Sequence record: MW250785
Strand: one strand, 5' to 3'
Length of the DNA: 64,000 nt
From: Escherichia phage UPEC03
Part shown: in pieces, positions 37,224 to 55,070 of the stretch
How the letters are laid out: every line of letters starts with the position of its first letter
Numbering within the stretch: the first letter of the stretch is position 1
Translations under genes and position numbers: made by a program
The notes under the pieces: generated by a model
Told to the model about the DNA's origin: nothing
Databases searched by the model: none
Seen by the model: only the letters and a program-made list of their open reading frames with translations

Positions 37224-37756
37224 TAGTAGTTGTTAGCCCAACGACGCAGGTTTTCCGCCTGTTTCAGAGCATACAGCTTGTAGATGGTTTCCGCATCAAG
37301 TCCCAGCGCGAGGAACTTACACATGAAGAAGTGCCACTGGTCAATCAGTTCAAACAGGATTTCCAGTTTGTCTTCTTCTTTCATTTCTGCGAATACCTGG
37401 CTACGCAGTTCCTGGTGATTTGCTTTCCACGGTTTCCAGACACCGGAAGCCGCTTTTGCACCGCGTGACATACCGCCCAGAGCGGTGTAAAGTTCGCGGG
37501 TTTCGTCTGCGATTGCATCATCTTGCAGTTTCAGCCAGTCCAGGATCTCACCGCACGTTTTCAGGTTATCAGGGCGCGGAACCCATGAAAGGGTATCAGA
37601 CAGGCTTTGTTGTGCGTGGTTCTGGAGATCCAGCATTGATTGCAGAGGATCGCCGTTACGTGCCAGAACCTTTTGATATTCGGTATCAACAAATTCCAGA
37701 TCAGCAGGGTTAACCAGGTGCGCACAGCTATTAAAAACAGGAGTTTTATCAGTCAT
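37223..37756 (-). CDS. 56: dCTP pyrophosphatase (dCTPase/dUTPase)
   Basis: 177 aa; LGGMSRGAKAASGVWKPWKA and FELIDQWHF parallel recalled T4 gp56. Confidence 0.8.
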   Translation of the reverse strand: MTDKTPVFNSCAHLVNPADLEFVDTEYQKVLARNGDPLQSMLDLQNHAQQSLSDTLSWVPRPDNLKTCGEILDWLKLQDDAIADETRELYTALGGMSRGAKAASGVWKPWKANHQELRSQVFAEMKEEDKLEILFELIDQWHFFMCKFLALGLDAETIYKLYALKQAENLRRWANNY

Positions 37757-38250
37757 TTATTTGTCTCTTCATTATGAAAATTGCCGAAAATCTCTTTTGC
37801 GGCATCATTGTAAGCGGCTTGTGCTTCTTCAACAGTTGCAAAAGAACCCAAATGTTTTCGTTTGCCCTTATATTGAATACTTGCAGAAAATCGGTTTCCG
37901 CGAGGGTATACACCAATGGAACCGCTTGTGTTGTTTTTACGTTTGTTAATGTGATTTGCATTGTTTTCCGCTGTACTTGCTGGACGCAAGTTATCAGGAA
38001 AGTCACCAACATCAACGCCTTTGATATGGTCAATCATATCAGGGAGATACCCAAAACGCGAGTAAAATATAACACGATGACGCATATATTTCACACCTTT
38101 TGTTTCGATGCGGGTATATCCCTTTTTGGTTTTTGTCCCAGCTTCCATACCATTTTTAAGCCAGTAAACCTTTCCGGTATTGTAATCTATTCTAACCTTA
38201 GTCAGAAGATCCTTTATACCATCTATTTCTTTTTCGGACTTCGATCCCAT
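37753..38250 (-). CDS. HNH homing endonuclease with AP2-type DNA-binding domain
   Basis: 165 aa; HNH_3-like GKVYWLKN...RHRVIFY...GYLP...IDHIKG...NL followed by AP2-like GVYPRGNRFSASIQYKGKRKHLGSFATVEEAQAAY; 3-prime end of gene 61 overlaps its start. Confidence 0.75.
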   Translation of the reverse strand: MGSKSEKEIDGIKDLLTKVRIDYNTGKVYWLKNGMEAGTKTKKGYTRIETKGVKYMRHRVIFYSRFGYLPDMIDHIKGVDVGDFPDNLRPASTAENNANHINKRKNNTSGSIGVYPRGNRFSASIQYKGKRKHLGSFATVEEAQAAYNDAAKEIFGNFHNEETNK

Positions 38251-39251
38251 TGGTTGAATCTCAACTTTGCAGTTAAACCGGACACTGTATTTTCTTTCAG
38301 ATACTTAGCAATGTCTGCTTTGGTAGCACCATCACTTTTAATCATTTCGTTGATATCTTTTGACGGCCAGGGGCATTTATCCCATAAAACGACCTTTTCT
38401 CCAGCATCAATCAATTTTTTTAACCTTGCGGTAGTATCTGGATGATGTCGTTCATTGTCAAGAACCCAGACACGCATATTTTTATACGGAACATCGGACA
38501 GCGCCATTTGTCCGCCCGTAATCGCACCAGCATTATCTACAAACAGGCTATCCAGCGGCCCTTCAAGCAGGTAGACAGGTTTCAACGGATCGATGGTATC
38601 TTGACCATACACTTTCGTTGAGTGTTCACATGCTTTGATTGTCATGTATTTTGCGTTGGCATTGTCACGCAAGGCGCGTCCCTGGAATGACTCGATTTTA
38701 CCCTTTTCATCAAAGATAGGGATCACCAAACGCGGTTCATCCTTCGGTAAAGGGTATGCGTCCGCATTCACAGAGTTAACCAGGTGTTGCCATTGACGCG
38801 TAAACCAGAGGCGATCATATTTGTCTTTAGGTATGTGACGACCTGCAACATACTTAACGATAGGGTGATTTTCTGGCAACGTGTCCAGACGTTCGCAGAA
38901 CTGCAATTCAGGAATATATTTCTTTTCTTCCTTCGGCGGTTCTTCGTGCGTCTGTTTTAAATCTTTACGATCCTTGAAAGATTCCATCAAATACGCGGTA
39001 TAATCATCCGGGTAATAGTCTTTCAGAAACACAGAAAACGGCTTGCTGTAGTTGCAGTTAAAACAACCACACATCATGTGTGTGCCTCGTTTTGACGGGA
39101 ATATCCAGAAACGTTTTTTGTGCTTATCCTTCATGGAGTCGCCACAAATCGGACAACGGGAATGGATACTGAATTCTCCACCCCGTCGAACGATTTCGCT
39201 TTGTGGTAATGATCCCATGATACGAGTTGCGAACTCTATATCAAGATACAT
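38223..39251 (-). CDS. 61: DNA primase
   Basis: 342 aa (same length as T4 gp61); zinc motif CPICGDS...CFNCNY and blocks EPRLVIPI, FQGRAL, VWVLDNE.HPDT match T4 gp61. Confidence 0.9.
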   Translation of the reverse strand: MYLDIEFATRIMGSLPQSEIVRRGGEFSIHSRCPICGDSMKDKHKKRFWIFPSKRGTHMMCGCFNCNYSKPFSVFLKDYYPDDYTAYLMESFKDRKDLKQTHEEPPKEEKKYIPELQFCERLDTLPENHPIVKYVAGRHIPKDKYDRLWFTRQWQHLVNSVNADAYPLPKDEPRLVIPIFDEKGKIESFQGRALRDNANAKYMTIKACEHSTKVYGQDTIDPLKPVYLLEGPLDSLFVDNAGAITGGQMALSDVPYKNMRVWVLDNERHHPDTTARLKKLIDAGEKVVLWDKCPWPSKDINEMIKSDGATKADIAKYLKENTVSGLTAKLRFNQWDRSPKKK

Positions 39252-39974: not shown

Positions 39975-40760
39975 TTACTCTATTGTGAAAGTGAAAAGGT
40001 TTTGCGCGGGTTCTGGCTCCGGTTCGGGGAATTCCATACAGACAACTTCACACATCGGTTTCACGCCTTTCCATTCTTCCAGATAATATCCGGTATCAAT
40101 GCCGCAACCTGGTTGCATTTCAAGGCCAGTTTCATCAAGAAACTTTTTGCATTTCGATGTTGTCGTTGATTCGTCCTGTTGGAAATAACGCCGTCCAGAG
40201 TAACGAAAATTCGCGGACATCTGCGGGAGAATGAACGTACCCGCACGGGCAATCTGTGAAGCACGTTCAATCACTTTATATTCAAATTCCGCGCCCGTAT
40301 ACTTACCCTTAAAATTGGATGTCTTTATCTTGCCGAAAGGTGGATTGCTGATCGCCATATCAAACAGAGTATCAAACTCCGTCGTTAACGCGTCTGCGTT
40401 AATCCAGGTCGCTTCCGGTACGATACGCTTACCCAACTTATAGTATGTATGGTTTAACTCAACACAGACGATTTCACGCGGTTTGGCGTACATCATCATA
40501 TGAAGCATCGCGAAGGATAGTCCACCGATACCCGCGCACAGGTCAACAACGCTTCCACTGGTACAAGCATCAATCGTGAAATCGCGAGCAAGTCCGATCG
40601 GGGTAAAGAATGCACCCAGTTCAGAGTTATTCGTAAATGCACCTTCATGGAAGTTTTCGATAATGAATAATTTTTCGTCGTAGGTTAGCGCCTTGTCAGA
40701 CTCCACCAGATCCATTATCTTGTTGTGTTGTTTGGTTTCCGCTTTCGTTAACTTCGCCAT
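39975..40760 (-). CDS. DNA amino-methyltransferase, gamma class (probably N6-adenine)
   Basis: 261 aa; motif X FFTP, motif I VVDLCAGIGG, motif IV ISNPPFG in the gamma-class order. Confidence 0.75.
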   Translation of the reverse strand: MAKLTKAETKQHNKIMDLVESDKALTYDEKLFIIENFHEGAFTNNSELGAFFTPIGLARDFTIDACTSGSVVDLCAGIGGLSFAMLHMMMYAKPREIVCVELNHTYYKLGKRIVPEATWINADALTTEFDTLFDMAISNPPFGKIKTSNFKGKYTGAEFEYKVIERASQIARAGTFILPQMSANFRYSGRRYFQQDESTTTSKCKKFLDETGLEMQPGCGIDTGYYLEEWKGVKPMCEVVCMEFPEPEPEPAQNLFTFTIE

Positions 40761-41091
40761 TGGCTTTTTCCGGTAATAAGAACAGAGGGGTAGATTCTAC
40801 CACATCAAAGCCCCAGTCATCAACAATATTGCTTTCCCAGTCGCGGGTTTCCCACGGGCTGCAAATCCACTTATACACCCCAGCAGGATCTTCAACCTGT
40901 TCAGGCATACCCAGCATTTCCGCATTGATACCTTCGTCCAAATAACCAGGATGAATATTAGGCCAACGCATGATATCAACATAGCCTTTGTCATCAACCG
41001 ATACGATCCATTCTGAACGATACGGGCTTTCGAACTCCGGTTCTTCGTCTGGGTATGCTGCAACTAAAATATCGTGTAATAAATCACTCAT
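40696..41091 (-). CDS. hypothetical acidic protein (131 aa)
   Basis: ORF, minus strand; 3-prime end overlaps the methyltransferase start. Confidence 0.45.
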   Translation of the reverse strand: MSDLLHDILVAAYPDEEPEFESPYRSEWIVSVDDKGYVDIMRWPNIHPGYLDEGINAEMLGMPEQVEDPAGVYKWICSPWETRDWESNIVDDWGFDVVESTPLFLLPEKANGEVNESGNQTTQQDNGSGGV

Positions 41092-41990: not shown

Positions 41991-43430
41991 TTAAAATTGA
42001 ATGTCTGTACTATTTGCTACTTCGGCTAACTTACTGCTTCGGTTAGTCTCAGCTTGTTTTACCATAGCACCTTGTGCTTCTTCAAGCGTTTTCGGCATCT
42101 GACGACCTTTATAATCAGATTGGAACCCGATATCGCTGTTGTCGGTATCCATCCAGCGTTGATTACCCTTGCGCACTTCGAGTTTGAAGTGGTTAAAGTG
42201 GTTCTTATCGCCGTAACGGGATTTGATCTGCTTGAACAACTGCAATCCCTGATCAGCTAACTCGTCGGTCTCGATCACAGCTAACATAAAGTCAGCGGTA
42301 GCTGGAAGACCAGCAGATTCGGCAACGTCGCCCATGCTGATATCAGAAGCATCCCACGCGGCGCGGGTAGTCTGCGCACCAGTCCACATTACGGTATTTG
42401 TTTCAACAGCCAAACCGCGAAGTTCTTCGGCAATCGCTTTAACCAGGATGTATGTGTTTTCCGCCCCGCGTACACGGGTAGAAGCACAGATCCCCAGGTA
42501 GTCAACAATAATCACATCAGGTACGAAACTCTTCTTCAATTTAAGCTCTTTAATCAGCGCTTTGAAGTGGTTCGCGTTCGCCCCTGCTGTTGGGTATTGC
42601 TTAACGATTAAACGCCCGACCTTCGACTGTTTGAGGCGTTCCATACGGTTCTTATAGTCCGCATAGGTGATGTTCCCGTTGTCGATATCGTCCATCGCAA
42701 CATCAAGCAGGTTAGCGTCAATACGTTTAGAACAAACGTGTTCAGCCATTTCCATACTGATATACAGGACGTTTTTACCTGATTGCAGGTAATCAGCAGC
42801 GAGAGAACAAAGCCCCAGAGATTTACCAACGTTAACACCAGCCATTAAGATGTTCAATGTTCCACGTTCTGCGCCGCCTTTGGTAATGGCGTTCAGGATC
42901 GGGATATTGAAAGCAATCTTCATCGCTTTGGACTGGTAAAGCATCCAGCGTTTTTCGTAGTCTTCGAAGTAATCATGACCGACCGAACTATCGAAGCTAA
43001 TCGCTAACGCTTCCGCCATGATGTCAGGGATTGCCCCAACGTCAGGGATTTTGTTGTTGCGTTCGCCAGCAGGTTTTTCAGCATTCGCCTGGATCTCAAT
43101 TGCACGGGACAGAGCGCGATACATTGCCTTGTCGCGACAATAGGTTTCCGTTTCTTTCATCAACCATTCCAGATCTTCCGGCGCATTTTTCATGCTGCGG
43201 ATCATCTTTTTGGTATCTTCGTAGACTACATCACTCAGGCTCTTTTTGTCCAGAGCTACTTCTAAAGCAGTTTGTGAAGGAATGCTGTTGAATTCCTGTA
43301 CGTGCTTATCCATCAAATCAAAGAGAATCTGCGCGTTCCCTTCGAAATATTCACGGCGTAAATGGGGCCACGCCTGAACAAAATACGTACCATTAAAAAC
43401 CAGATTTGAAAATATTGTTTCGACGATCAT
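41991..43430 (-). CDS. 41: replicative DNA helicase (DnaB-like)
   Basis: 479 aa (T4 gp41 is 475); Walker A in MAGVNVGKSLGL and overall DnaB-family layout. Confidence 0.9.
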   Translation of the reverse strand: MIVETIFSNLVFNGTYFVQAWPHLRREYFEGNAQILFDLMDKHVQEFNSIPSQTALEVALDKKSLSDVVYEDTKKMIRSMKNAPEDLEWLMKETETYCRDKAMYRALSRAIEIQANAEKPAGERNNKIPDVGAIPDIMAEALAISFDSSVGHDYFEDYEKRWMLYQSKAMKIAFNIPILNAITKGGAERGTLNILMAGVNVGKSLGLCSLAADYLQSGKNVLYISMEMAEHVCSKRIDANLLDVAMDDIDNGNITYADYKNRMERLKQSKVGRLIVKQYPTAGANANHFKALIKELKLKKSFVPDVIIVDYLGICASTRVRGAENTYILVKAIAEELRGLAVETNTVMWTGAQTTRAAWDASDISMGDVAESAGLPATADFMLAVIETDELADQGLQLFKQIKSRYGDKNHFNHFKLEVRKGNQRWMDTDNSDIGFQSDYKGRQMPKTLEEAQGAMVKQAETNRSSKLAEVANSTDIQF

Positions 43431-43785: not shown

Positions 43786-44934
43786 TTACTCTTCTGACAT
43801 ATCCACATCATCAGGGATATCGTCATCGAGATCAAATTTATTTGACGGTTCTACTTCATCGTCAGAATAAAGATCTTCGAGTGCTGCCCCGTCAGTGATC
43901 TCTTTGTCAGGAATACGGTACTTATCCTGAATAGCATCAAGGAATGGTTGGTGAGTGAACAGAGGTTTCCAGAACTCAATAGAGTTGGTTTCCGATTCAC
44001 GCCATTTCTTTTCTTCCAGTTCAAGTTCGCCCGTTTCCGTGTTCAGGAACGCACGACCGCGCCAGCCTTTCGTTGGAGTCTGAACGAAGTTCATTTCCAT
44101 AGCCAGATCCAGAAGACCAGAGAACATACTGATACCGCCCTCATAGGTAACATGAAGCGGGAATTTGGATTTCTCTTTCACGAAACGAGATTTCTCGATG
44201 TTCATGATGAAGTCATAACCGACAACTTCCGTACCTTCTTTCACCTGCTGTTTGCCCAGGATGATCGCGGTATCTGCGGAATACATCAGACCAGTACCAC
44301 CAGAAATGACTTTCTTGCTGTACATTTCTTGTGTGTCGTATGTGTGACAGATACACACCATTGGAATATCCAGATCCGCCAGGTAAGGCGTAACCATACG
44401 GAACATACCTTTAAGTGCTTTAGCGCGGGTCATGTCCTGTTTGTCGTTGTCAGACAGGGCATCAGCCAGTTCTTTTTTACTCGCGGTGTTGCCTACAGAG
44501 TCCACGAAAATGATCACTTTGTCGCCACGTTCCAGCGCGTTAAGCTGGCTCACAACGTCATTTCGAAGTTGCTCAACTGTCGTGATACGAGTATACACCA
44601 CACGATCGGGGTCAACGCCCATTGATTTCAGGTAAGACTTAGTTACGCCTTTCTCTGAATCGTAGAACAGACACACAGCATCCTCATTCGCTTTGAGGTA
44701 CGCCGCAACCGTCACCAGCCCCAGATTCGATTTAAAGTGTTTTGACGGACCAGCAAACAGAGTTAAGCCGGAAGTCAGACCACCATCGAAAGCGCCGGAC
44801 AGCGCCAGGTTCAGGATCGGTACACGGGTTCGAGTTTTGGTGATGTTATTGAAAACATCGCTTTCAGACAGAATTGACGCAGATTGACTATTCGAGTTTT
44901 TGATCAGTTTTTTCAGGAGTGCTTTATTAGACAT
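43786..44934 (-). CDS. uvsX: UvsX recombinase (RecA-like)
   Basis: 382 aa; GPSKHFKSN, DAVCLFYDSE, VDSVGNTASKKE, HTYDTQEMYSK match recalled T4 UvsX. Confidence 0.92.
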   Translation of the reverse strand: MSNKALLKKLIKNSNSQSASILSESDVFNNITKTRTRVPILNLALSGAFDGGLTSGLTLFAGPSKHFKSNLGLVTVAAYLKANEDAVCLFYDSEKGVTKSYLKSMGVDPDRVVYTRITTVEQLRNDVVSQLNALERGDKVIIFVDSVGNTASKKELADALSDNDKQDMTRAKALKGMFRMVTPYLADLDIPMVCICHTYDTQEMYSKKVISGGTGLMYSADTAIILGKQQVKEGTEVVGYDFIMNIEKSRFVKEKSKFPLHVTYEGGISMFSGLLDLAMEMNFVQTPTKGWRGRAFLNTETGELELEEKKWRESETNSIEFWKPLFTHQPFLDAIQDKYRIPDKEITDGAALEDLYSDDEVEPSNKFDLDDDIPDDVDMSEE

Positions 44935-45013
44935 TTATTTTTCCGGTTTATATACACGCATAATATTTTCCTCACAAATTTATATAAATGGGGCATTTCT
45001 GCCCCGTCAGGTC

Positions 45014-47719
45014 TTACCAGTCATCACCAAACAGAGTGTTCAGGGATGTGCGTTTTTCGTAATCAATTTTACATGCTTCCGTGATGTTTTGCAACGGACT
45101 AATCACATGTTTTTCAAATAATCCGCCGTAGTCTACCCACTTCAAAATATCTTCTTCGATCTCAGTTGGTAAACGCGTACCGGATTGCCATGCGATGCAA
45201 TCAGCTTGCCACGGGTTTTTATCTCGCAACGGCAGAACCATCACCTTTTCACCTTCCATGATCGGGGTGATTCCTTGAATACCCTTCGTATGGCGGTTAA
45301 AGAACAGAACGCCTTTGATGTGGTTTGGTGTCCCTTTGATTGGGAAGCCAGCACCATCATTATATTTTGAGATATTATTAGCAGATGATACACCAGCTAT
45401 TTCTCGGTAGTCAAGTGCCTTATACTCTTCTTCAAATACTTTGAAGTGTTCGTGTAAGGATTCTTCACCTTCTTGCAGGATGCGACGGATCGCTTCTTTC
45501 AAGAACTTTTTAACCGCTGTCGGTGTACTGCTTCGCTGGGTTTCCATTCCCATGATCTTTAATTTAGGCTTCTCGTAACGGGTTCCTTCGGAGTCCCATA
45601 CGTTAGCCGCATATCGTTTCTTCGCCGTCCAGAAACTACCCAAACCTTTCGATCCCAGAGGTGGCCCAGAAATGATTTCGCGATCCATAAACATCAGGTG
45701 TTCGACGTTGTTCATGTACTCGCAAAGTTCACGGTAGCCCTTATCAATGATAGGTTCCATGCGTTCTTTACTGAACTTATCCAGGAAGTCAACCCAATGG
45801 TTGTTATCCCTGAACTTACTTTCACCGCCGACTTTCGCGATCACGTTGTCCATGCAAACATAAATGGAGTCGGTGTCACAGTAACGCACGTATGCGTAAT
45901 CCGTGGTGTTGCACAGTTCGTTAAGGTATTCGTTAACCTTACGCTCAATCCACTGAATAGCCAACTGCCCGAACATGGTGATCGCGCTGGCGTTTCGAAT
46001 ATCGAAGTAACGGAAATGTTCGTTACCCAACGCACCATAAAGGGAGTTGATACTGATTTTACGGTTAAGCTGTGCGGTGTTCGCCTGTGCGATTTTCTTC
46101 TCACACACTTTCTTCACGGCTTTAAGCATTTGCTTAGACAGCGTTTTCAGTACAGCTTTTGATTCATCACCGAAATCTTCGTAGAACTCGAAATCAGGGT
46201 TGATCATTTGGTTGTGCGCGTCTGTCAGGTGTTCGAGTTCGTGCTTAATCAGTTCGAGATTTCGCTCACCCGCCATCATTCGTTTTTTCCACGCCTTACG
46301 CTGATCAAATACTTTCTTGATCTCGACCGGAATCACGCCTTTAACATCGCGTCGGAACATCCACCCGTTAGGAGAGCAGCTAAATTCGTCGCTAGGACGC
46401 GGCGCAGTCTTATTGATGTATTCATGCATCGGACGCACTGCAAAGCTGTTAGCGATTGTCTCAGGGCTTATATTCACCTGTCGGATGATAGATGGATACA
46501 GACTGGTTAAGTCGAACGATACAATGTAACGGTATGGAGCGACAACCGGATCTTTAACGTATGCACCATCATACGGCGTTTTAGTATGGCGTTTGTTTTC
46601 TGGGATTACTTTCTTCTCTTCACGTAGAGAGTTGTAAATGATTGCGTCCCACGTTTTAAGCGGCGACATAACCCCAGGGAAGTTGATTTTCGCGTAGTAC
46701 GCTACAGACAGAACCAGTTCGATAAAGTTTCGTTTACCGTCGATATCCAACACGCGGATAACGTCAACGATGTTGTACGTGATGTATTTCTGGTGATCCG
46801 CTTGACGAAGTTCAGACAGCGAACCTTCATAATCAACTTTGCTTTTACCTGTTTCGAACTCAGCGATCGCACCCAGAGAGTAAGACGGTTGCGGGGTGAA
46901 ACTGAATTTCTTATAGAGATCCATTCCATCCATTTGAGCAACGCCGTAAATCTCATAGCCCAGTTGTTCGTTCCCGTAATGGTCGGTTGTTGTCTTCGCA
47001 GTCACTTTCCCGAACGGGCTGAAATGACGAACAACGTTTTGCCCGAAGATGTTCAGGTAACGGGTGATGATATACGCAATATCGAACTTGTTTGAGTTCC
47101 AGCCCGTAACAATAACAGGCGTCCGCTCTTTCCAGTCTTTGATATAAGCCGACAACAGCGACTTTTCGGTCTGGAATGAACGGTAAACAATTTTCTTCAA
47201 GTCTTCTTCGCTGATCTCGTTTTCGGTATCAACTTTCGACGCTACCCATTCATCTAACCCGCCCTCGACCAGATCGTACACAAAGAATTTATCTTCAACG
47301 CTGTCATAGTGTGTGATTGCGTCGATAGCATATTTTGCTTCGCGGGGATCAGGGAATTCAGGCGCGGTAACTTCGATATCAAGTGAAGCAATGCGGATCT
47401 TGTCGCGGTCGTATTCGATTTCCTTTCTGTAGGCATCGGATATATACGCCAGCCTGAAATCATCCATGCCTAGCGCTTCCATGCCTACATCTTTCATTCG
47501 CTGCATCCAGTTTTTTGCTTCTTTGATGCTTTCGAAGTTCTTTTTGATGCAGGTCTTGCCGTAAATGTCGCGATATGGCGAGTCTACACCCGCCATAGCG
47601 TGTTGAAACATTGTAGGCGCATATTTTGTTTTGCGAACCTGTTCGCGTCCCTCAGAGTCAATGAAGCGCTCGTAGATGTGATCGCCCATTTGCTCAACGG
47701 ATAGATAAAATTCATTCAT
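45014..47719 (-). CDS. 43: DNA polymerase (family B)
   Basis: 901 aa (T4 gp43 is 898); exonuclease and polymerase motifs including SLYPSII and YCDTDS. Confidence 0.95.
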   Translation of the reverse strand: MNEFYLSVEQMGDHIYERFIDSEGREQVRKTKYAPTMFQHAMAGVDSPYRDIYGKTCIKKNFESIKEAKNWMQRMKDVGMEALGMDDFRLAYISDAYRKEIEYDRDKIRIASLDIEVTAPEFPDPREAKYAIDAITHYDSVEDKFFVYDLVEGGLDEWVASKVDTENEISEEDLKKIVYRSFQTEKSLLSAYIKDWKERTPVIVTGWNSNKFDIAYIITRYLNIFGQNVVRHFSPFGKVTAKTTTDHYGNEQLGYEIYGVAQMDGMDLYKKFSFTPQPSYSLGAIAEFETGKSKVDYEGSLSELRQADHQKYITYNIVDVIRVLDIDGKRNFIELVLSVAYYAKINFPGVMSPLKTWDAIIYNSLREEKKVIPENKRHTKTPYDGAYVKDPVVAPYRYIVSFDLTSLYPSIIRQVNISPETIANSFAVRPMHEYINKTAPRPSDEFSCSPNGWMFRRDVKGVIPVEIKKVFDQRKAWKKRMMAGERNLELIKHELEHLTDAHNQMINPDFEFYEDFGDESKAVLKTLSKQMLKAVKKVCEKKIAQANTAQLNRKISINSLYGALGNEHFRYFDIRNASAITMFGQLAIQWIERKVNEYLNELCNTTDYAYVRYCDTDSIYVCMDNVIAKVGGESKFRDNNHWVDFLDKFSKERMEPIIDKGYRELCEYMNNVEHLMFMDREIISGPPLGSKGLGSFWTAKKRYAANVWDSEGTRYEKPKLKIMGMETQRSSTPTAVKKFLKEAIRRILQEGEESLHEHFKVFEEEYKALDYREIAGVSSANNISKYNDGAGFPIKGTPNHIKGVLFFNRHTKGIQGITPIMEGEKVMVLPLRDKNPWQADCIAWQSGTRLPTEIEEDILKWVDYGGLFEKHVISPLQNITEACKIDYEKRTSLNTLFGDDW

Positions 47720-50107: not shown

Positions 50108-50779
50108 TTACTTGAACTGGCTGGTTGCTTCAAGTACCACTACATACGCAACGCCGTTTTCGGACGAGAATTTCGCAGCGCCGCGAGAAGAGATTTCAAC
50201 TTTGTAATCGCTGTTGATGAACTGCATGTTGTCAATCTTCATATCGAAGTTGAACATGTTATCACCTTCGTAATCGCCCACTTCCACAGAGAAGGTTGAC
50301 TGGCTTTCTTTACTTTTCGCGGTGATTACCAGCTTGCCGTTGATTGGCTCAACAGACAGGTCGGTCAGTTTCATCATGCGTGACGCTTTGATCAGTTTTT
50401 CGAAATCGTTCGCGCTAATCTGGAAAATCAGATCCGCAACTGGCATTTCCAGACGCTTCTTAGGCTGTACGATTGTGGTTGGATCGCTTGAACGCTCAAC
50501 GATTTTCATTTTCTCACCACGAATGACGATTTCGCCAGTGGACAGATCGTGAGTTACTTCGGCATCAGTGCCTACAACGTTCAGCATGTTCAGGAATGAG
50601 TTCAGATCGTAGATACCTACATCTTCGTCAATTACGTCAGAAATCGTTGCTTCTGCGTAAACTACGCTGTTGATGGATTTCGTCATAATGAACGAACCCT
50701 TTTTCAGCATTACAGACGGGTTGATCTGGGAGAAGTTTTTCAGGATGTCGATCGTTTGTTTAGAGAATTTCATATTCAA
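50108..50779 (-). CDS. 45: sliding clamp
   Basis: 223 aa (T4 gp45 is 228); position upstream of genes 44 and 62. Confidence 0.85.
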   Translation of the reverse strand: MNMKFSKQTIDILKNFSQINPSVMLKKGSFIMTKSINSVVYAEATISDVIDEDVGIYDLNSFLNMLNVVGTDAEVTHDLSTGEIVIRGEKMKIVERSSDPTTIVQPKKRLEMPVADLIFQISANDFEKLIKASRMMKLTDLSVEPINGKLVITAKSKESQSTFSVEVGDYEGDNMFNFDMKIDNMQFINSDYKVEISSRGAAKFSSENGVAYVVVLEATSQFK

Positions 50780-52107: not shown

Positions 52108-52773
52108 TTATTTCTCGTTTAAGTTAATTAAAGTTTGTTTCATTAAGTTTCGGTATTTTACGATTTCTTCGTTACTGATTTCAACTAATTTTCTGTATGC
52201 GTTTAGTTTTTTACTAAATTCATTCCAGACGAAATCCGTTGCGATTTCATCGTGTTTATTTATGATGTCTAAAAACGAGTCGAGGATCAAGAATGATTCA
52301 TAAGAAATCACCCCAGACTGTACGAGTTTGCTGATATACGAGGTTGATGATTTGACGCTATACTGAAACACCGTTGAGAGGGGAATACCTTTCATGCGGG
52401 AAAATTCATACAGGTTTTTTACATCGTCCACGAAAATATTATCAATTCGCCTCAACTTGCCTATGTATTGACGATAAAACACGATCGTATCTTCGTCTAC
52501 ATCCCCGACCCAGAAGTCGGGGTTAGCTACCATGTTGGAGAGAAGTATAAGATATATTTCTTTAAATGTAAACCTTTCGGCTAACTTTTTGAAAAAATAC
52601 TTATCTCTTCTCTTTTCGAACGCTTTTTCAGTGATCTTTATTTCCCATTTGTACTTGATCGCGTCATACTTCCCAGCAAAGTGATTTTTCATCACCAGAT
52701 ACAGTTTGTATACCGCGATCGGTTTCAAACGGGAATTAGCGTCTGAACTGTCAAACGGGGTTTTAAATTTCAC
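52108..52773 (-). CDS. 59: helicase loader
   Basis: 221 aa; VYKLYLVMKNHFAGKYDAIKYKW, KRRDKYFF, LILDSFLDIINKHDE parallel recalled T4 gp59. Confidence 0.88.
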   Translation of the reverse strand: MKFKTPFDSSDANSRLKPIAVYKLYLVMKNHFAGKYDAIKYKWEIKITEKAFEKRRDKYFFKKLAERFTFKEIYLILLSNMVANPDFWVGDVDEDTIVFYRQYIGKLRRIDNIFVDDVKNLYEFSRMKGIPLSTVFQYSVKSSTSYISKLVQSGVISYESFLILDSFLDIINKHDEIATDFVWNEFSKKLNAYRKLVEISNEEIVKYRNLMKQTLINLNEK

Positions 52774-53021
52774 ATGAAATCATCCAGTGTTTGCGTCGTC
52801 GCGTGGTCTTTAGCCACAGAAGGACGCAGCAGATTGTTTTTAATGGCTTCGTCGCTAATCTTGTCGATGATCGCTTTCGGTACGGTTTTGGACAGCATAG
52901 CATAATCAATGCTGTTTTCGTCCATCCATTGTAACGTAGCTTCCATGTAGGTTGCCCCCTCAGAGGCAACCAGATTTTCGATATACAAGCCGACTTCGGT
53001 TTTGTTTCCGATTTCGCTCAT
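52770..53021 (-). CDS. 33: late transcription co-activator
   Basis: 83 aa; YMEATLQWMDENSI...EAIKNNLLRPSV parallels recalled T4 gp33. Confidence 0.75.
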   Translation of the reverse strand: MSEIGNKTEVGLYIENLVASEGATYMEATLQWMDENSIDYAMLSKTVPKAIIDKISDEAIKNNLLRPSVAKDHATTQTLDDFM

Positions 53022-53295: not shown

Positions 53296-54231
53296 TCAAA
53301 AGTCACTTAGTTTTTCATACATACGGGTAAGTTTGCATTCCATGAAGTATTTCTCCATTTTTGCTTTGTTCCCGATTTTTGGAGCATTGTACGCTTCTTC
53401 GATTGCCGTTGCAACATCTTTCGGAATAAAATCAAAGTCGCGAAGTTCTTCGTTTTCTCTGTAGCGGATCGCCCACTCTTCGGGCATACCCACGGTCGGA
53501 TCGTCCGCTTCCAGCCAGGCTTCGAGTTCAGCAGCCCTGATTTGTGGGGCGCGTTCTCCTTCAACCTTCGTAACAATATAGTCATTTCGCATTTTAATGC
53601 AAGCGATACTATCTTTTTTATCGCCCTTGATGATCTTCATGCGCAAATCGTTACGAGGTGAACCATATTTCGGTGTAACCCATTTCTTTTGGGTTGGCGA
53701 CCACTGACGCACACCCTGATATTTTTGAAGGGCTGCAAAGTCACCATCAGCAGAAACGATCAGGACACGTTTACCTTAGGATACCGCTTTACGCGTCACC
53801 ACACCGATCACGTCATCGGCTTCTGCGAAGTCAACACGGATACCTTTGTACGGTAAATTAGCACGGATTTCATCGTATGTCGGGTGAAGGAAACCATTCA
53901 GGCGATCCCAGTCCCAATCCGATGCTTCTTGTTCCATTTTTCGTTTCTTTTTGTAGTACCAGGCTTTACTTCTGCGCCAATACTTGTTATCATCAAAGGC
54001 TAGAACAATTTCAGGGTACTCACCTTTGAATTTAACCACATTGTGACGAATGGTGTCAAGCACTATGTGACGAACAATTTGTTGGTTGATGTCATTCTGG
54101 TCTTTCGGCTTGAAGTTGTTCATCAACGTTGCTACCGAAAGGTTTGAAATATCTATACACATCACATCAACAGGATCATCGTCATTGCTCATTAAGCTGT
54201 TCAGGTTGAACATACTTGCAAATGAAGACAT
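53296..54231 (-). pseudogene. rnh: RNase H (5-prime-3-prime exonuclease) interrupted by an in-frame TAA
   Basis: N-part (53779-54231) and C-part (53296-53712) lie in the same frame and together align collinearly with T4 RNase H; TAA at 53776-53778 sits where T4 has E in FSLEGHK; start set at MSSFASMF with RBS. Confidence 0.8.
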
Positions 54232-54554: not shown

Positions 54555-55070
54555 ATGACTACAAAGATTTATGCAGATAATGATAAGCTGTATCCAGTTA
54601 TGTGTAAGTGGAAACAGCAAATCCGTGAAACTGGTGATCGTAAGATGCCGGATGAACTCGGTATTGCGATTATGAACATTGCTCACGGTTTGGCACGTCG
54701 ATACAACTTCAACCGTTATTCCGAAGACTGGAAAATGGATATGATCGATGATGGAATTTCGGCAACGATTTCCGGCCTTCATAACTTTGACGAAACCAAA
54801 TATACAAACGTCTACGGTTACATCAACAAGGCTTGCTGGCAAGCGTTTGTAACTCGTATTCTCTACGAGAAGAAAGAGAACGCGAAGAAATACAAATACT
54901 TCCTGGAACATGTCTATGACAGCGATGATACTGATATGACCACGATAGCCGATGAAACTTTCATTCAGGATATCCATGACAAACTTAATCAGTATGAAGA
55001 GTCCGCGAAAAAACCCAAAGATAAAATCGAGGTTGTGGACGAATCGCCAACATTGGAAATGTTTCTATGA
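54555..55070 (+). CDS. 55: late-transcription sigma factor
   Basis: Start set at MTTKIY with GGAGAA RBS; GIAIMNIAHGLARRYNF, GLHNFDETKYTN, ADETFIQDIHDKL..YEES match recalled T4 gp55. Confidence 0.9.
   Translation: MTTKIYADNDKLYPVMCKWKQQIRETGDRKMPDELGIAIMNIAHGLARRYNFNRYSEDWKMDMIDDGISATISGLHNFDETKYTNVYGYINKACWQAFVTRILYEKKENAKKYKYFLEHVYDSDDTDMTTIADETFIQDIHDKLNQYEESAKKPKDKIEVVDESPTLEMFL

Follow-up and report, generated by a model that had tools for sequence, protein, structure and literature searches.

The 64,000-nucleotide stretch of Escherichia phage UPEC03 DNA analysed here (sequence record MW250785; the whole stretch is called the window below) carries, within its block of replication genes, an intact open reading frame (ORF) of 261 amino acids (aa) whose product is a putative orphan DNA methyltransferase. 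The surrounding region shares 98% identity with Enterobacter phage EC-F1 and with the Cronobacter phages leB and leE, of the genus Pseudotevenvirus; the host genome is that of an RB43-type (Pseudotevenvirus) T4-like phage. As a first-pass annotation of the window had proposed, the ORF lies between gene 61 and gene 41, and the coordinates given there without a strand hold, the strand being minus.

39975..40760, minus strand: putative orphan methyltransferase ORF, 261 aa, from ATG to stop (stop codon 39975-39977)
38223..39251: gene 61, primase, one flank of the methylase
41991..43430: gene 41, helicase, the other flank

The gene order runs dda, gene 56, an HNH/AP2 ORF, gene 61, two small ORFs, the methylase, four small ORFs and gene 41, and continues with gene 40, uvsX, gene 43, regA, 62/44 and 45, the last of these being the clamp loader and the clamp. 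The placement between 41 and 61 is retained in a relative with 68% identity. The same annotation had noted no adjacent restriction partner, and the neighbouring genes and their Pfam scan bear this out: no restriction endonuclease or specificity subunit adjoins the methylase, its neighbours being small phage ORFs without a Pfam match, the primase and the helicase, and the prophage copies of the family are likewise without a nuclease partner at their loci. A conserved partner gene was ruled out as well, the neighbours being wholly different in the T4-like and the prophage copies.

The ORF belongs to a large family. The protein is 100% identical to one from Cronobacter phage leB, tblastn finds the methyltransferase in 286 phage records, and more than 1000 relatives are present in a large protein collection, the family comprising at least 680 clusters at 50% identity (E<=0.001). 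The profile phrog_3820, whose name, 'DNA methyltransferase', is an annotation label and not a tested function, is matched at E 1.2e-130, with residues 1-260 on profile positions 1-254 of 255. These matches, together with the invariant motifs described below, show that the ORF is not a chance one. The RefSeq start of the leE orthologue is later and gives a shorter N-terminus; since the first 25 residues (MAKLTK..H....DLV.SDK) are conserved family-wide, the start that yields 261 aa is taken to be correct. The start of the methylase (40696-40760) overlaps the end of an upstream 131-aa ORF (40696..41091) by 65 nucleotides, an overlap which the later RefSeq start of leE avoids and the conserved N-terminus, favouring the long form, does not. 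The family has been met before under other descriptions. Nolan et al. entered the RB49 orthologue among novel ORFs, noting its 'methyltransferase small domain' (PMC1524935), and Slopekvirus genomes encode an 85%-identical copy, while a survey of modification in Slopekvirus named Dcm and Dam as the only methyltransferases it found (PMC5219037).

Three methyltransferase motifs are arranged in the protein in the gamma-class order, X then I then IV, and all three had been recognized in the first-pass annotation.

40599..40616, minus strand: motif X, GAFFTP, aa 49-54 (FFTP at aa 51-54), with residues invariant in 121 sequences
40521..40550, minus strand: motif I, VVDLCAGIGG, aa 71-80, the loop binding S-adenosylmethionine (SAM), with invariant residues; aligns to motif I of PH1948
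40332..40352, minus strand: motif IV, ISNPPFG, aa 137-143, the catalytic amino-methyltransferase motif, with S138-G143 invariant

Residue conservation was read from a 121-sequence alignment (the C-terminal tails, treated below, were counted in the 120 closest clusters), in which G49, A50, F52, T53, P54, D73, C75, A76, G77, G79 and S138-N-P-P-F-G143 are invariant. ISNPPFG is the sole match to [DNS]PP[YFWH] among window ORFs of at least 120 aa, and NPPF is also motif IV of the HsdM subunit in a type I system (bioRxiv 10.1101/2023.04.06.535777). One distant relative, P0122 (389 aa), has the family core joined to a segment matching the final 50 positions of Pfam N6_N4_Mtase, a SAM-binding stretch of beta-class DNA methylases.

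An AlphaFold model built on the family alignment has a mean predicted local distance difference test (pLDDT) value of 91.9 and a predicted template modelling score (pTM) of 0.88, with lower confidence at residues 41-50 and in the last 17.

40029..40760, minus strand: catalytic core, aa 1-244, with N-terminal helices, a Rossmann fold and a small C-terminal subdomain (aa ~180-243)

The model is best covered by gamma-class DNA adenine methylases (HsdM, M.BseCI, M.TaqI). Query-normalised template modelling (TM) scores from Foldseek are 0.54-0.56 for StySJI HsdM, 0.55 for M.BseCI and 0.52 for CamA, compared to 0.40-0.48 for PH1948, and the HsdM-type DNA enzymes align over 205-213 residues, compared to 155-175 for RNA enzymes. 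Behind motif VIII comes a conserved subdomain some 60 residues long (aa ~180-243), and the C-terminal tail is modelled at low confidence, undocked on the core. The protein would thus be an adenine-N6 type of enzyme with gamma architecture, intermediate between DNA enzymes of the HsdM kind and the small enzymes acting on RNA.

The tail is the feature that may connect the enzyme to replication. In the family alignment the catalytic core ends in ...CE(I/V)V.C.F, and is followed by a variable low-complexity linker and then by a short conserved peptide. The strict pattern Q[LMFIV]x[LMIF][FLW] occurs in the tails of 40 of the 120 closest clusters, whereas shuffling each tail 2000 times left on average 0.3, and never more than 3, tails with the motif. 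The motif stands 0-8 residues from the C-terminus after linkers of 8-158 aa (QLSLFDAA, QLDLFGEAA, QLDMFAEAA and QLALF are examples), and it is absent from the cores of the 120 relatives. Relaxed forms (QADLF, QAGLF, TMDLF) are found in a further 32 tails of the 120, and in an independent diverse sample of 150 representatives of 50%-identity clusters there are 26 strict and 11 QxxLF motifs, many of the sequences ending ...QLxLF-COOH. The pattern answers to the canonical motif of bacterial beta-clamp binding, whose consensus, reportedly that of Dalrymple et al. in 2001, is QL[SD]LF. Members with a motif of the beta-clamp type (QLxLF or the relaxed NLDLF) reside in the early operons of prophages using host replication: a P. 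aeruginosa prophage copy (QLDIF) stands beside ERF, and a metagenome-contig copy (NLDLF) accompanies a cI/Cro switch. The Salinisphaera prophage copy, beside VRR-NUC and Lar genes, has the tail DQMDSLEVVA, without a recognisable clamp motif. Clamp tethering across the family is, as a prediction from these patterns, well supported. A separate observation is that P0025, P0067, P0087, P0095, P0096 and P0100 share a conserved basic C-terminal segment, ...TRRQRLDRKAAVERKARMAL, after a (D/G)LF clamp-like motif.

In the window protein the corresponding region, the proposed partner clamp and the phage proteins that serve as comparators are as follows.

40002..40028, minus strand: linker PEPEPEPAQ, aa 245-253, acidic and proline-rich, pLDDT ~65; its length and sequence vary in relatives
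39978..40001, minus strand: C-terminal NLFTFTIE, aa 254-261, at the same position as the clamp motif of relatives; proposed gp45-docking peptide
50108..50773, minus strand: gp45 sliding clamp (Pfam gp45-slide_C 2e-22, DNA_PPF 1.4e-11), the proposed partner of the tail
45017..45046, minus strand: C-terminal SLNTLFGDDW of gp43 DNA polymerase, comparator of known gp45-binding type
52773..52790, minus strand: C-terminal TLDDFM of gp33, comparator of known gp45-binding type
55050..55067, plus strand: C-terminal TLEMFL (PTLEMFL) of gp55, comparator of known gp45-binding type

The motif QLxLF occurs in none of the T4-like members, and the window protein has AQNLFTFTIE instead. The window protein and the 15 clusters nearest to it, all of them from RB43-, KP15- or Pantoea/Pectobacterium-type T4-like phages, share the ending [LNE]F[TD]F[TRKV]IE-COOH while the linker drifts; among window proteins the F-x-F-x-I-E ending belongs to the methylase alone. 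The RB69 polymerase tail peptide is reported to have been crystallised on RB69 gp45. A C-terminal gp45-binding motif of gp33 and gp55 is described in a review of sliding clamps (PMC9690074). P0031, a T4-like metagenomic relative whose gene is flanked by a gp33-like gene and gene 32, ends in ITLETFL, of which TLETFL is a full fit to [ST]LxxΦΦ in the form of the window gp55 PTLEMFL. The peptides EPEPAQNLFTFTIE are candidate gp45 binders, and gp45 tethering of the window protein itself is plausible, the chances on this sequence evidence being about equally divided.

Several features weigh against such tethering. NLFTFTIE is without the [ST]LxxΦΦ of gp43, gp33 and gp55, NLFTFT fitting L2 and F5 and not position 6; its L is lost in orthologues (NFTFRIE, EFTFKIE); and it is only loosely like the RB69 gp43 peptide SLFDMFDF, with which it shares L-F-polar-hydrophobic. 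Moreover, 25 of the 120 relatives are tailless, including those of RB49-type and Aeromonas T4-like phages, so that tethering is not essential. The predicted clamp coupling is weakest for the window's own protein. The enzyme may instead be a DNA methyltransferase whose NLFTFTIE binds another protein (gp32 or gp59, for example), mediates self-association, serves turnover or has no function. The departure from the pattern of gp43, gp33, gp55 and the Dam homologue of leE (described below) would suit this alternative, as would the F-x-F-x-I alternation, which is beta-strand-like and unlike a known clamp motif, and the many tailless T4-like relatives. Yet NLFTFTIE is positionally equivalent to the beta-clamp motifs of homologues and to the T4-type motif of P0031, the terminal motif is conserved while the linker is not, and it has four hydrophobic residues within seven, as in the RB69 gp43 peptide. 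This alternative is regarded as possible but doubtful.

The nature of the substrate is the second question on which the evidence is divided. A single Pfam model, PF05175 MTS, clears its threshold (24.1 bits, cut-off 23, aa 64-146); it defines a class of fold and motif and not of substrate, and its domain is also present in RNA and protein methylases; 116 of the 121 relatives match it at E<=0.01. Eco57I (PF07669) remains below threshold for the window protein (15.4 bits against 25.3), N6_Mtase (PF02384) is not listed, and no NCBIfam match comes near any curated cut-off. Sequence searches of the PDB, whether by the protein alone or by the family profile, give as best matches the METTL5-like PH1948, Ta1320 and RsmC, all of them weak and limited to motifs I-IV. 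By sequence the nearest solved proteins fall, like the lone Pfam match, among the RNA and protein methylases of the MTS, METTL5 and RsmC type, and the model contains no domain comparable to the target-recognition domain (TRD) of M.TaqI or M.BseCI; both points tell against the reading as a DNA adenine methyltransferase. Within the family, 39 of 121 members match Pfam N6_Mtase and 24 of 121 match Eco57I (E<=0.01), one relative being just over the N6_Mtase cut-off (20.5 compared to 20.4). Sequence profiles alone leave the substrate ambiguous.

An RNA methyltransferase of the METTL5, RsmC, RsmD or Trm-like kind, acting on adenine N6 or guanine N2 of ribosomal or transfer RNA and modifying host or phage RNA, would account for these profile matches. 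However, a clamp-binding peptide is found on at least a third of the family and would be sensible only for a DNA-acting enzyme; HsdM-type DNA enzymes cover the N-terminal helices and the GAFFTP of motif X, with the longer alignments given above; and the genes of the family occupy replication and recombination modules in phages whose hosts are unrelated. The METTL5, PH1948, Ta1320 and MTS enzymes, moreover, are without the region of a GAFFTP-type motif X, the C-terminal subdomain and the clamp tail, covering 170 of the 261 residues; METTL5 is a ribosomal RNA N6-methyladenosine enzyme, and the others of the PH1948/Ta1320 group are uncharacterised. An RNA substrate is therefore considered unlikely. 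A protein methyltransferase, namely a PrmC/HemK-like glutamine or other N-methylase acting on a host or replisome protein, possibly the clamp, is very improbable, although NPP[FY] is also a PrmC motif, weak NCBIfam matches point to PrmC and L3 glutamine methylases, HemK appears in the profile search at E 0.06 and the GenBank record of phage E26 labels its copy 'release factor glutamine methyltransferase'.

DNA is hence the best reading of the substrate, as the first-pass annotation had supposed. Its proviso, that profile searches might assign the protein to an RNA or protein methyltransferase family, came close to being borne out (MTS, PH1948, Ta1320, RsmC), but these matches are outweighed by the fold, by the N6_Mtase and Eco57I matches of relatives and by the clamp-type tails. 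The tail is the strongest argument of all, because a conserved clamp-binding peptide on a flexible tail fits poorly with an RNA or protein substrate.

It is thus rather probable that the window encodes a compact, SAM-dependent orphan DNA adenine-N6 methyltransferase of gamma order, made together with the replication genes and docked on the clamp via its tail. What the analysis shows is the ORF, its motifs and fold, the tails with their conservation and statistics, and the genomic settings; the DNA substrate, the adenine N6 target atom, the binding to the clamp and the role in anti-restriction are all inferred. By analogy to HsdM and M.TaqI, motifs I and X would hold SAM, while NPPF would take the flipped-out adenine. 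Target recognition could fall only to the small conserved subdomain at aa ~180-243, and the recognition sequence is for this reason probably short or relaxed. The tail peptide would dock the enzyme on the clamp remaining on newly replicated DNA, whereby the daughter duplexes may be methylated during synthesis and protected from host restriction. In temperate-phage relatives the tail peptide is the canonical beta-clamp motif, and in the T4-like phage, which has its own clamp gp45, it has been replaced by NLFTFTIE, a putative gp45 binder. The wider proposal, to which even chances are given, is that a widespread family of phage methylases (at least 680 clusters) is coupled to the replisome by a C-terminal peptide which is exchanged to match the clamp used, the gp45-type tail of the Dam homologue having arisen independently. 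Such matching, an equally balanced suggestion, would assign QL[SD]LF to the host beta clamp and the T4-type or FTFxIE endings to gp45.

The Dam homologue just mentioned is one of two further methylases which the leE genome encodes, both of them outside the window, the window-type enzyme being one of three orphan methylases.

leE 154342-155193 (L009 28343-29194): homologue of T4 Dam (54% identity), 283 aa, with DPPY, lying ~5 kb upstream of the window start
leE 74629-75552 (L005 48630-49553): C5-cytosine methylase, 307 aa, FPCQ motif, without a clamp-type tail

The Dam homologue of leE has a 17-aa C-terminal extension, lacking in T4 Dam, which ends in PLTLNDLM. When the last ten residues of ORFs of at least 60 aa in all six frames of the 167 kb of leE were scanned for [STN]L..[LFM][FLM], only gp43, gp33, gp55, the Dam homologue and two antisense ORFs were retrieved. 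Two unrelated methylases of one phage lineage thus have C-terminal peptides of the type or in the position of a clamp client. The leE DNA ligase (L005 30153-31676) also ends in a hydrophobic C-terminal peptide, ...VIFADLF, which might be a clamp-docking site.

The first-pass annotation had in addition linked gp56 to cytosine modification, which the gene content does not uphold. In the window uvsX directly adjoins gene 43 (junction 44934-45014), whereas in T4 b-gt and 42 (also imm) stand between uvsX and 43, and dam between 56 and 61. Neither b-gt, gene 42 nor imm is at the uvsX-43 junction of the window, and in the window and leE 8.5-126 kb neither a ThyA paralogue nor a dCMP hydroxymethylase came to light. 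Petrov et al. (PMC2993671) record gene 56 for almost every T4 relative, whereas their list for gene 42 consists of T-even, JS98, RB69, CC31, Acinetobacter and certain Aeromonas phages, with RB43-type phages unlisted. An interplay of gp56 with hydroxymethylcytosine is rejected on the same evidence. The lack of b-gt, 42 and imm between uvsX and 43 is consistent with unmodified cytosine in an RB43-type phage, and a C5 methylase in the lineage implies ordinary cytosine in its DNA. For the carriers (RB43-type, Slopekvirus and RB49 phages) the literature searches brought up gene lists only, and methylome data were not found for any of them; a passage of the KlebPhaCol preprint mentions an adenine methylase for Slopekvirus, which also has a Dam homologue.

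Two observations concern neighbouring genes. An HNH plus AP2-like homing-endonuclease ORF of 165 aa (37753-38250, minus strand) lies between gene 56 and gene 61, with a 28-nucleotide overlap with the end of gene 61 and weak Pfam matches (HNH_3 21 bits, AP2 20 bits); it is not at this site in leE, and it stands in the slot of T4 dam. The rnh gene (RNase H, 53296..54231) contains an in-frame TAA at 53776-53778 on the minus strand, where the 99.7%-identical leE gene has GAA (E152), so that the 311-aa protein is split into two ORFs. This stop could be a real nonsense mutation, a strain difference or a sequencing error.

In itself the enzyme is unremarkable. It is another member of an annotated and uncharacterised phage family of 'putative DNA methyltransferases', and it belongs to no restriction-modification system. 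The new feature is the predicted clamp-binding tail; full-text literature searches turned up no methylase from bacteria or phages described as bearing a clamp-binding motif. Orphan phage methylases are usually viewed as free-floating enzymes which race host restriction enzymes for the new DNA. A tether, if it is real, would account for the ability of so small an enzyme, lacking a large recognition domain, to win this race by acting just behind the fork, and DNA methylation would become another of the functions that the sliding clamps of bacteria and phages organise. The type of tail would then become a rule which predicts the clamp used by a phage methylase. The family was overlooked in the Slopekvirus survey, and an additional methylase may bear on the unexplained restriction resistance and the wide host range that these therapeutic-candidate phages have.

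Among known systems, the window protein resembles the gamma-class N6 enzymes HsdM, M.TaqI, M.BseCI and CamA in the order X-I-IV, in G-x-F-F-T-P and NPPF, and in a Rossmann fold with N-terminal helices, yet it is under half their size and is without a large recognition domain, HsdS or a restriction partner. T4 Dam (alpha class, GATC) is likewise an orphan phage adenine methylase encoded in the replication block, between genes 56 and 61; with its alpha order and DPPY it is not homologous, in agreement with the dissimilarity that had been noted at first. The nearest analogues in function, M.EcoGIX and M.BceJIII (PMC7736820), are orphan N6-methyladenine (m6A) methylases of mobile elements which depend on the replication machinery and shield incoming DNA from restriction, but they are plasmid-borne beta-class enzymes with DPPY, single-strand specific and associated with Pol I, and no clamp motif has been described for them. 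A C-terminal peptide behind a flexible segment recruits certain DNA-acting proteins to a sliding clamp, namely gp43, gp33, gp55 and, through a beta-clamp motif, the C protein of phage Mu (PMC9690074; bioRxiv 10.1101/2025.01.04.631326); these are polymerase or transcription factors and not methylases, and the window tail departs from their [ST]LxxΦΦ. A parallel in design is the eukaryotic DNMT1-PCNA pair, the only link between a methylase and a clamp in the sliding-clamp review (PMC9690074), in which a DNA methyltransferase is likewise aimed at new DNA by a clamp-binding peptide, the phage link being predicted from sequence. DNMT1 is an unrelated, large multidomain C5-cytosine enzyme which employs a PCNA-interacting protein (PIP) box, and thus another clamp and another motif. 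Should the tether be confirmed, the phage family would represent a prokaryotic-virus counterpart of DNMT1-PCNA, in which replication-coupled methylation serves as an anti-restriction strategy.

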